NCBI RefSeq assembly: GCF_003334255.1
Contig: NZ_QOWU01000151.1
DNA: 1,744 nt
Source: Escherichia coli
Lineage (GTDB): Bacteria > Pseudomonadota > Gammaproteobacteria > Enterobacterales > Enterobacteriaceae
Direction: 5' to 3' (one strand)
Shown piece by piece: positions 656 through 1,120 of this stretch (within the stretch, counting starts at the first letter, position 1; each line of letters begins with the position of its first letter). Both the position numbers and the translations under genes were made by a program. A model generated the notes under the pieces. The model saw nothing but the letters and a program-made list of their open reading frames with translations. It searched no databases and was not told where the DNA came from.

Positions 656-1120
656 ATGAGTGATAAGCTCCCTTCTGATTACGAAATTCTTTTTGACCTG
701 TGGTACAGCTACTGGCTTGAACACATGACAAGCCTTCTCCACCGTCGCGCTTCCTTGGTTCTGAGGATTAGCGCTTTCCTTGCGATTGTTGCCGCATTCA
801 TTTTTTGCGACAGCGCAACGTTTGTTTTCGCCAGTGTGGTGCTCTTTCTGGTGTGGCAGGTCATGGCTGCCTCTCTTTCTATCAGAGCTGAAAAGGCTGA
901 ATGGCAGGCGCTTAGCTATCAAAGACTGATTAGCCAGCGCCACGTGCTCACCCCGGAATGCATGATTGCGCGCCTCTCCTTTGTTGAGGAAAGTGACAGC
1001 CCCGTGATGGAGTGCATGATCAACCTTGCCTGGAATAAAGCCTGTGAGACGGTTGGTAGCTCTGCGCGCAATCATGTTTCGATCTCCGGTCGGTTACTCA
1101 GTCGCCTGTGCGGCTTTTGA
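656..1120 (+). CDS. hypothetical small membrane protein (154 aa): short N-terminal segment, two predicted transmembrane helices, ~80-aa C-terminal domain
   Basis: Open frame 329..1120, but the first ~110 codons are Arg/Pro-rich low complexity and overlap the intergenic repeats. The protein-like part begins at ATG 656 (MSDKLPSDYEILFDLWYSYW...), preceded by a G-rich SD-like GGGGTG at 644..649. Two hydrophobic stretches (SLVLRISAFLAIVAAFIFC and ATFVFASVVLFLVWQVMAASL) are separated by a short turn. TGA stop at 1118..1120. Alternative start at ATG 596 cannot be excluded. Confidence 0.65.
   Translation: MSDKLPSDYEILFDLWYSYWLEHMTSLLHRRASLVLRISAFLAIVAAFIFCDSATFVFASVVLFLVWQVMAASLSIRAEKAEWQALSYQRLISQRHVLTPECMIARLSFVEESDSPVMECMINLAWNKACETVGSSARNHVSISGRLLSRLCGF

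Follow-up and report, generated by a model that had tools for sequence, protein, structure and literature searches.

A 27-bp tail-to-tail overlap between two convergent genes in an Escherichia coli prophage most probably (a probability of about 0.7) arose incidentally from the close packing of genes and the exchange of cassettes in the early operon of a P2-like prophage. The window, by which we mean the whole 1,744-nt stretch of DNA analyzed and to whose positions all coordinates refer unless another locus is named, contained a single plus-strand gene and, convergent with it, a DUF4406 gene on the minus strand. The overlap itself matters little: it is short, set by stop codons, and of a widespread type, and RefSeq already annotates it. 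More useful are four findings on the genes that form it: the "hypothetical" plus-strand ORF is genuine and conserved and encodes a putatively SLATT-like protein with two transmembrane (TM) helices; it constitutes an exchangeable cassette set backwards in the early operon of P2-like prophages; the Fels-2 and vB_YenM_42.18 reference genomes have the ORF at its family's locus annotated on the wrong strand; and the DUF4406 pseudogene of the window strain is annotated by RefSeq as a shortened, apparently intact protein. Should the membrane protein prove to be a prophage defense or exclusion effector gated by convergent transcription, the locus would be moderately interesting for phage biology.

Prophage setting

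The window was 100% identical to positions 5347147 to 5348890 of the E. coli DETEC-S792 chromosome (NZ_CP116067.1) and belonged to the early region of a prophage of P88/P2-like type (Peduoviridae), adjoining dmsA, for which the nearest named phage was Escherichia phage P88 (Xuanwuvirus, Peduoviridae). The flanks of the window contained an integrase gene and an HTH repressor gene, a run of about 18 genes on the window's minus strand, and then a portal gene. The minus-strand run included genes for DUF4761, DUF4754, a 3'-5' exonuclease, a ParE-like protein, Dam, and DUF4406, the 73-aa and 138-aa genes, and genes for replication endonuclease A, a MarR-family protein, and SSB. Within this run, the early order on the minus strand was Dam, DUF4406, a C4/isrK RNA module, the 73-aa gene, the 138-aa gene, and replication gene A, and the gene at 656 to 1120 was the sole plus-strand gene in the early block. 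The loci compared with the window were the surrounding region of NZ_CP116067.1 (L001), E. coli SCU-172 (L002), Fels-2 (L004; NC_010463.1), Yersinia phage vB_YenM_42.18 (L005), E. coli 2013C-3033 (L008), an IMG/VR record (L012), and the E. coli relatives or alleles L003, L006, and L007. The features of the window are collected in the table.

Table. Features of the 1,744-nt window, in order of position
Feature	Positions	Strand	Basis
73-aa gene, phrog_3688, "derepression protein" in P88 and related E. coli prophages	51..272	-	ORF, family match, annotation
C4 antisense RNA	329..416	-	Rfam RF01695, 80.4 bits against a gathering score of 45, model 1-87, full-length
isrK-like RNA element, with terminator hairpin 472..457	452..526	-	Rfam RF01394, 67.2 bits against a gathering score of 50, model 1-77
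Promoter-like site TTGCCA-18-TACATT, upstream of the isrK/C4 module	533..562	-	Consensus match only; also in L008
Accessory cassette: 80-bp upstream region and the plus-strand gene	~576..1122	+	Homology breaks against L008
Gene for two-TM-helix protein, phrog_6315, 154 aa, predicted SLATT-like fold	656..1120	+	Family match, dN/dS, AF2, Foldseek
DUF4406 gene (nucleoside 2-deoxyribosyltransferase-like), frameshifted in the window strain	1094..1443	-	Pfam, alignment with intact L002/L003
Tail-to-tail coding overlap, 27 bp, exact antisense register	1094..1120	both	Stop positions, RefSeq annotation
Weak 6-bp hairpin followed by TTTTGATTTGT, inside the overlap	1100..1115	+	Pattern scan
Dam (DNA adenine methylase) gene, 3' part, next early gene upstream of DUF4406	1472..1744	-	RefSeq CDS 7472..8416 of L001

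The C4 and isrK elements lay together behind the promoter-like site (329 to 562, minus strand) and were followed by the 73-aa and 138-aa genes, just upstream of gene A; the promoter-like site stood back to back with the upstream region of the plus-strand gene. In L002, a tandem duplication of about 829 bp (2222 to 3416) had doubled the C4 and isrK RNAs together with the 73-aa gene, whose two copies encode the identical protein WP_000013462.1. A further structural difference concerned the interval between the DUF4406 and Dam genes, where a 486-bp indel distinguished the window (about 1445 to 1471) from L003 (4435 to 4920); two small minus-strand genes of 72 and 78 aa occupied this interval in L003, L006, L007, and L008 and were missing from the window and L002.

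The convergent genes

Both ends of the overlap were set by stop codons, TGA at 1118 to 1120 for the plus-strand ORF and TAA at 1096 to 1094 (the complement of TTA) for the minus-strand ORF, so the choice of start codons was irrelevant to it. The two frames ran codon against codon, with the leucine codon TTA (1094 to 1096) of the plus-strand gene opposite the minus-strand stop. In the identical sequence NZ_CP116067.1, RefSeq annotated both coding sequences with the same overlapping 3' ends, and a search of 5426 complete E. coli genomes found the 27-bp overlap identical in all 25 carriers of the plus-strand gene, including alleles only 82 to 84% identical; it was present in seven IMG/VR loci as well. 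The overlap described in the earlier note was therefore real, and it was not removed by revised gene boundaries, since the stop-defined 3' ends were the same in many independent assemblies. By family matches and dN/dS, both frames were genuine protein-coding genes and the overlap recurred in independent sequences, but in the window itself only the plus-strand gene was intact. Among five alleles, only two substitutions fell in the overlap, both synonymous for the plus-strand gene and nonsynonymous for the DUF4406 tail, a pattern that fits weak constraint on that tail.

The earlier note had described the minus-strand gene as DUF4406-like and suspected that it was an inactivated pseudogene, and both points were upheld. 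The Pfam domain DUF4406 (PF14359) matched residues 3 to 91 of an intact 116-aa relative (E value, 1.4e-32), the gene matched phrog_355 (nucleoside 2-deoxyribosyltransferase; E value, 2.6e-38), and its dN/dS was 0.24 to 0.42. Compared with the intact 116-aa genes of L002 and L003, the window copy had a 1-nt deletion at 1398/1399 (GACCAC to GACAC on the minus strand) that shifted the frame after codon 15, and the frame that opened at the authentic start, 1443, closed after 25 codons. The deletion is probably real, because the independent IMG/VR record L012, identical to the window over all 1744 nt, carried it as well (3887 to 3900); among the complete E. coli genomes, the window copy was the only one with this deletion. 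The 104-aa CDS annotated by RefSeq (1408..1094; WP_225394294.1) took its start from an ATG (1408) that in intact copies belongs to another frame, and it was without the N-terminal IYIAGPMTG motif; it carried no pseudogene flag in the RefSeq table shown. The further suggestion that the overlap reflects decay of the locus failed, because intact 116-aa DUF4406 genes in relatives overlapped by the same 27 bp and the frameshift lay about 300 nt away, at the opposite end of the gene.

The plus-strand protein matched phrog_6315 end to end (E value, 1.6e-65), and a profile search found 222 clusters of relatives, almost all of 150 to 165 aa. Between E. coli alleles, dN/dS was 0.20 in the plus frame, compared with 0.44 to 1.7 in the three antisense frames, which also contained stops, and substitutions in the gene were distributed over the codon positions in the order 3 > 1 > 2 (48/30/16). 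The gene is thus evidently under purifying selection. Homologue alignments and other records placed its start at the ATG at 656. The RefSeq start in the source record, 473 (215 aa), made the ORF read through the region of the divergent promoter as well as the isrK element, and homologues gave it no support.

The minus strand was considered as the coding strand across 656 to 1120, a reading implied by the annotations of Fels-2 and the Yersinia phage, and was rejected on account of the antisense dN/dS values given above and of stops in all minus-strand frames of the window. The exact-antisense frame of the plus-strand gene had a single stop in 155 codons, which is a classic shadow frame. Long minus-strand ORFs that run antisense through the plus-strand gene, the RNA module, and the 73-aa gene in L006 (1863 to 2975, 370 aa) and L008 (1106 to 2473, 455 aa) look like shadow ORFs. 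In two reference genomes, the annotated ORF was on the wrong strand: STM2733.1.Fels2 in Fels-2 (L004 3408 to 3953), where the conserved ORF is L004 3495..3953 (plus strand), and PQA65_gp08 in vB_YenM_42.18 (L005 3309 to 3974), where it is L005 3495..3965 (plus strand). A literature search found no paper on the plus-strand gene, under STM2734 or otherwise, and none on C4 antisense RNA in P2-like phages.

The AF2 model of the plus-strand protein (pLDDT, 93.8) contained a hairpin of two helices of about 40 residues each (8 to 50 and 53 to 93) and three short helices. Two hydrophobic segments, within residues of about 31 to 78, lay on the hairpin, and on these grounds the gene is predicted to encode a membrane protein, in agreement with the earlier note. 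The best Foldseek matches in AFDB were proteins of the same size annotated as SLATT or DUF4231 (TM scores, 0.7 to 0.83), and the top BFVD fold matches were also annotated as SLATT. The NCBIfam model SLATT_4 gave in-register matches below threshold in 7 of 10 relatives (12 to 22 bits against a cutoff of 55), but NCBIfam gave no match for the window protein itself at E values of ≤0.1. Searches of the window protein against Pfam yielded no SLATT match and only a weak match to DUF6239 (E value, 0.0075), and the PDB held no solved-structure match by sequence or by fold. No SMODS, SLOG, or other signal-generating partner was conserved beside the gene, where the neighbors were phage early genes that depended on the lineage. 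The protein is accordingly described here as SLATT-like by predicted fold, with only putative membership of the family.

The gene was mosaic. In a comparison of positions 700 to 900 with positions 950 to 1250 between the window and L006, and among E. coli alleles generally, the part encoding the hairpin was only 62 to 73% identical, and the 3' half of the gene and the start of the DUF4406 gene were 90 to 99% identical. For the 3' half of the plus-strand gene with the overlap, identity was 94 to 99% among alleles whose 5' halves diverged by as much as 38%. The divergence suggests intragenic recombination or diversifying pressure on the hairpin, and the conservation of the 3' half could reflect dual-coding constraint or simply recent recombination.

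Relatives of the plus-strand gene were sought in IMG/VR with a 5-sequence alignment of the family, and the resulting 52 loci were always on contigs of P2-like size. In most of them, the family gene was flanked by opposite-strand ORFs; a few crude ORF calls gave a same-strand neighbor. The 3' neighbor and its distance varied with the lineage: DUF4406 with the 27-bp overlap in the E. coli group (7 loci), a fil-like 79-aa gene with a 53-bp overlap in the Fels-2 group (about 25 loci and Fels-2 itself), and various genes with gaps of 31 to 91 bp in the Yersinia-type and other groups. Adjacency of DUF4406 to the family gene was confined to the E. coli group, with no DUF4406 within 4 kb in about 40 other loci, and the C4 and isrK RNAs were not found in the Fels-2 and Yersinia loci. 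Because partner, RNAs, and overlap or gap all vary between lineages, the constant feature of the family, as far as these genomes indicate, is antisense placement inside the early operon, and neither an overlap nor any one partner.

Origin of the overlap and alternative explanations

DNA homology between the window and L008 was confined to 3 to 575 and 1123 to 1553, with breaks at 575/576 and 1122/1123, and the segment between the breaks is the cassette listed in the table. Its right edge lay two bases past the stop of the plus-strand gene, with no spacer. The same slot in L008 held a 788-bp cassette with a divergent allele of about 35% protein identity; P88 lacked the gene in the interval from its early genes to its derepression gene, and the gene occurred in only 25 of the 5426 complete E. 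coli genomes. Since the cassette edge coincides with the end of the plus-strand gene, the last DUF4406 codons are cassette sequence. The DUF4406 tail of the window lineage, ...QLLHKSKAAQATE, extends 27 bp into the plus-strand gene, and that of L008, ...QLLRRKADAT, ends 49 bp short of that gene, leaving a gap. The nine DUF4406 codons in the overlap (108 to 116) were outside the Pfam domain, and a lambdoid DUF4406 protein, of 98 aa, ends about 20 residues earlier. When the three frames entering leftwards from the cassette boundary were followed to their first stops, they gave overlaps of 23, 27, or 49 bp. Some overlap would thus be inevitable given this boundary, and its size appears to be such as chance gives.

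The favored explanation follows from this arrangement. A compact cassette sits reversed between the DUF4406 gene and the RNA module, and with its edge at the stop of the plus-strand gene and no spacer, the DUF4406 frame, already past its domain, runs nine codons into it and ends at the first in-frame stop, which on the other strand is the leucine codon TTA; the overlap would on this view be incidental. The earlier note had also pointed out that the overlap leaves no room for terminators between the genes. On the minus strand, this agreed with a pattern scan, which detected no terminator-like site at the junction or anywhere between 1094 and the isrK terminator at 472..457, and none at the corresponding junctions of Fels-2 or L008. 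We infer that early transcription on the minus strand reads through the junction, as it would have to do to reach the downstream genes, and that it is antisense to the whole plus-strand gene. The antisense span would be 465 nt rather than 27 bp because the early operon continues past the plus-strand gene to gene A. In Fels-2, too, gene A lay downstream of the antisense gene with no recognizable promoter module between them, so the early transcript there must presumably cross the antisense gene to reach it.

On the plus strand, the pattern scan picked out the hairpin at 1100 to 1115, which was rejected as an intrinsic terminator of the plus-strand gene. Its fold was weak (dG, -7.2 kcal/mol; z, -1.3; 20 of 200 shuffles folded as well), its T-run was disrupted in the allele L007, and no comparable plus-strand site was present in Fels-2 or L008. 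The transcript probably ends diffusely or by Rho action within the DUF4406 gene. The scan revealed no promoter for the gene upstream of 656 in the window. The gene would be expressed when the early promoter is repressed, that is, in lysogeny, and would be suppressed by convergent transcription after induction.

Some observations count against parts of this account. A promoter-like site (562..533) and the isrK terminator belong to the RNA module itself, and expression of gene A may therefore be independent of read-through from the DUF4406 gene. The scan, as noted, gave no promoter for the plus-strand gene. In addition, overlaps were seen in two lineages, of 27 bp with one partner and 53 bp with another, which could mean that the absence of a spacer is favored rather than neutral, and the high identity of the 3' half could, as said above, stem from dual coding.

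A broader proposal, which we regard as speculative and rather unlikely, is that phrog_6315 represents an unrecognized class of stand-alone SLATT-like membrane effectors in P2-like (Peduoviridae) prophages. Such effectors would always be antisense in the early lytic operon, often without a spacer and hence overlapping the upstream early gene at its 3' end, would act in superinfection exclusion or abortive infection during lysogeny, and would be silenced by convergent early transcription on lytic entry, with the missing terminator and the overlap forming part of the switch.

A role for the 27 bp themselves, in which pairing of the mRNA 3' ends or collision of the polymerases would let each gene modulate the other, is distinctly improbable. 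The lack of a terminator-like site at the junction, the constancy of the overlap in all 25 E. coli carriers and the 7 IMG/VR loci, and the 53-bp overlap with another partner in a second lineage would all be in keeping with it. However, its conservation within E. coli is explained by the near-identity of the whole stretch from 950 to 1250 among the alleles, the partner gene differs between lineages, the DUF4406 gene is already inactivated in the window strain, and if the minus-strand transcript reads through, the antisense region is the whole plus-strand gene. Moreover, L008, in the same slot, and the Yersinia-type and other phage homologues do without an overlap, having the gaps given above, and because such natural variants exist, the overlap itself is evidently dispensable and a specific regulatory role for it unlikely. 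Antisense regulation or transcriptional interference at this locus, as raised in the earlier note, is nevertheless plausible.

It is also conceivable, with a very low probability, that the SLATT-like protein and DUF4406 (Rossmann-like, of the nucleoside-deoxyribosyltransferase type) form a two-gene conflict system whose linkage is kept by the overlap. SLATT domains are reportedly linked, as a rule, to Rossmann-like partners that bind or process nucleotides, and the two genes were always adjacent in the E. coli lineage. That adjacency was limited to this lineage, however, and DUF4406 also occurred in lambdoid prophages in which the plus-strand gene was missing. In addition, the genes are convergent and hence not cotranscribed, DUF4406 was frameshifted in the window next to an intact plus-strand gene, and PADLOC had no match for either protein. 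The partnership was rejected because it was not conserved across loci.

Finally, an artefact of annotation or sequencing, or pseudogene decay, by which one ORF would be unreal or would have lost its stop, is the least credible reading and is already largely refuted: although the window DUF4406 gene is frameshifted, the Fels-2 and Yersinia phage annotations chose the opposite strand in the homologous region, and 3'-end extension is a known source of spurious convergent overlaps (PMC2478687), the 3' ends agreed between independent assemblies, both proteins had strong family support with a signature of purifying selection in the plus frame, and the frameshift at the 5' end of the DUF4406 gene left its stop unmoved, with intact relatives overlapping identically.

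Comparison with known systems

The C4/isrK module looks like an immI-like RNA switch of the P1 type in a P88/P2-like prophage. As in immI of P1 and P7 (c4 antisense RNA-icd-ant) and in Salmonella isrK, a small ORF came next, and both window elements passed the Rfam gathering scores. Unlike those modules, that of the window lay a short way upstream of replication gene A in a phage of the P2-like type; it is background to the overlap and forms no part of it. A general functional tie between the module and the plus-strand gene was rejected, as the gene occurred without these RNAs in Fels-2 and the Yersinia phages.

The plus-strand protein resembled SLATT (SMODS and SLOG-associating 2TM effector) proteins in its length, which for these is about 150 to 160 aa, and in having a long two-TM helical hairpin followed by short helices. 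It differed from them in that it matched no SLATT HMM (E ≤ 0.1) and that no relative reached the curated cutoff.

Phage morons are independently transcribed accessory genes in prophages, such as P2 old, tin, and fun(Z). The plus-strand gene was like them in its presence or absence and its allele polymorphism among otherwise collinear phages, with discrete breakpoints, and in being a small stand-alone gene whose orientation was independent of the surrounding operon. As to a promoter and terminator of its own, the scan yielded no promoter upstream of 656 and, as a terminator candidate, the weak and nonconserved hairpin at 1100 to 1115. In contrast to the P2 accessory loci in the hotspots of Rousset et al. 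2022 (PMC9122126), the cassette lay inside the early operon and antisense to it; the sole mention of SLATT in that paper is of an RT-SLATT system, which is unrelated to the plus-strand gene.

The overlap itself had most in common with the short convergent overlaps of prokaryotes (PMC2478687). Convergent pairs made up 7% (3,035) of 42,055 well-characterized overlaps in 338 genomes in that survey, and suspicion was confined to overlaps longer than 60 bp (PMC2478687). As in such pairs, two real genes on opposite strands had their last few codons in common, over less than 60 bp, one frame ran on to the next stop, and the arrangement was kept only among close relatives. Unlike the usual cases, one partner here was a mobile accessory cassette, reversed inside a phage operon, and the overlap appears to have been made by the cassette boundary and not by a stop codon having been lost from a stable pair of genes.
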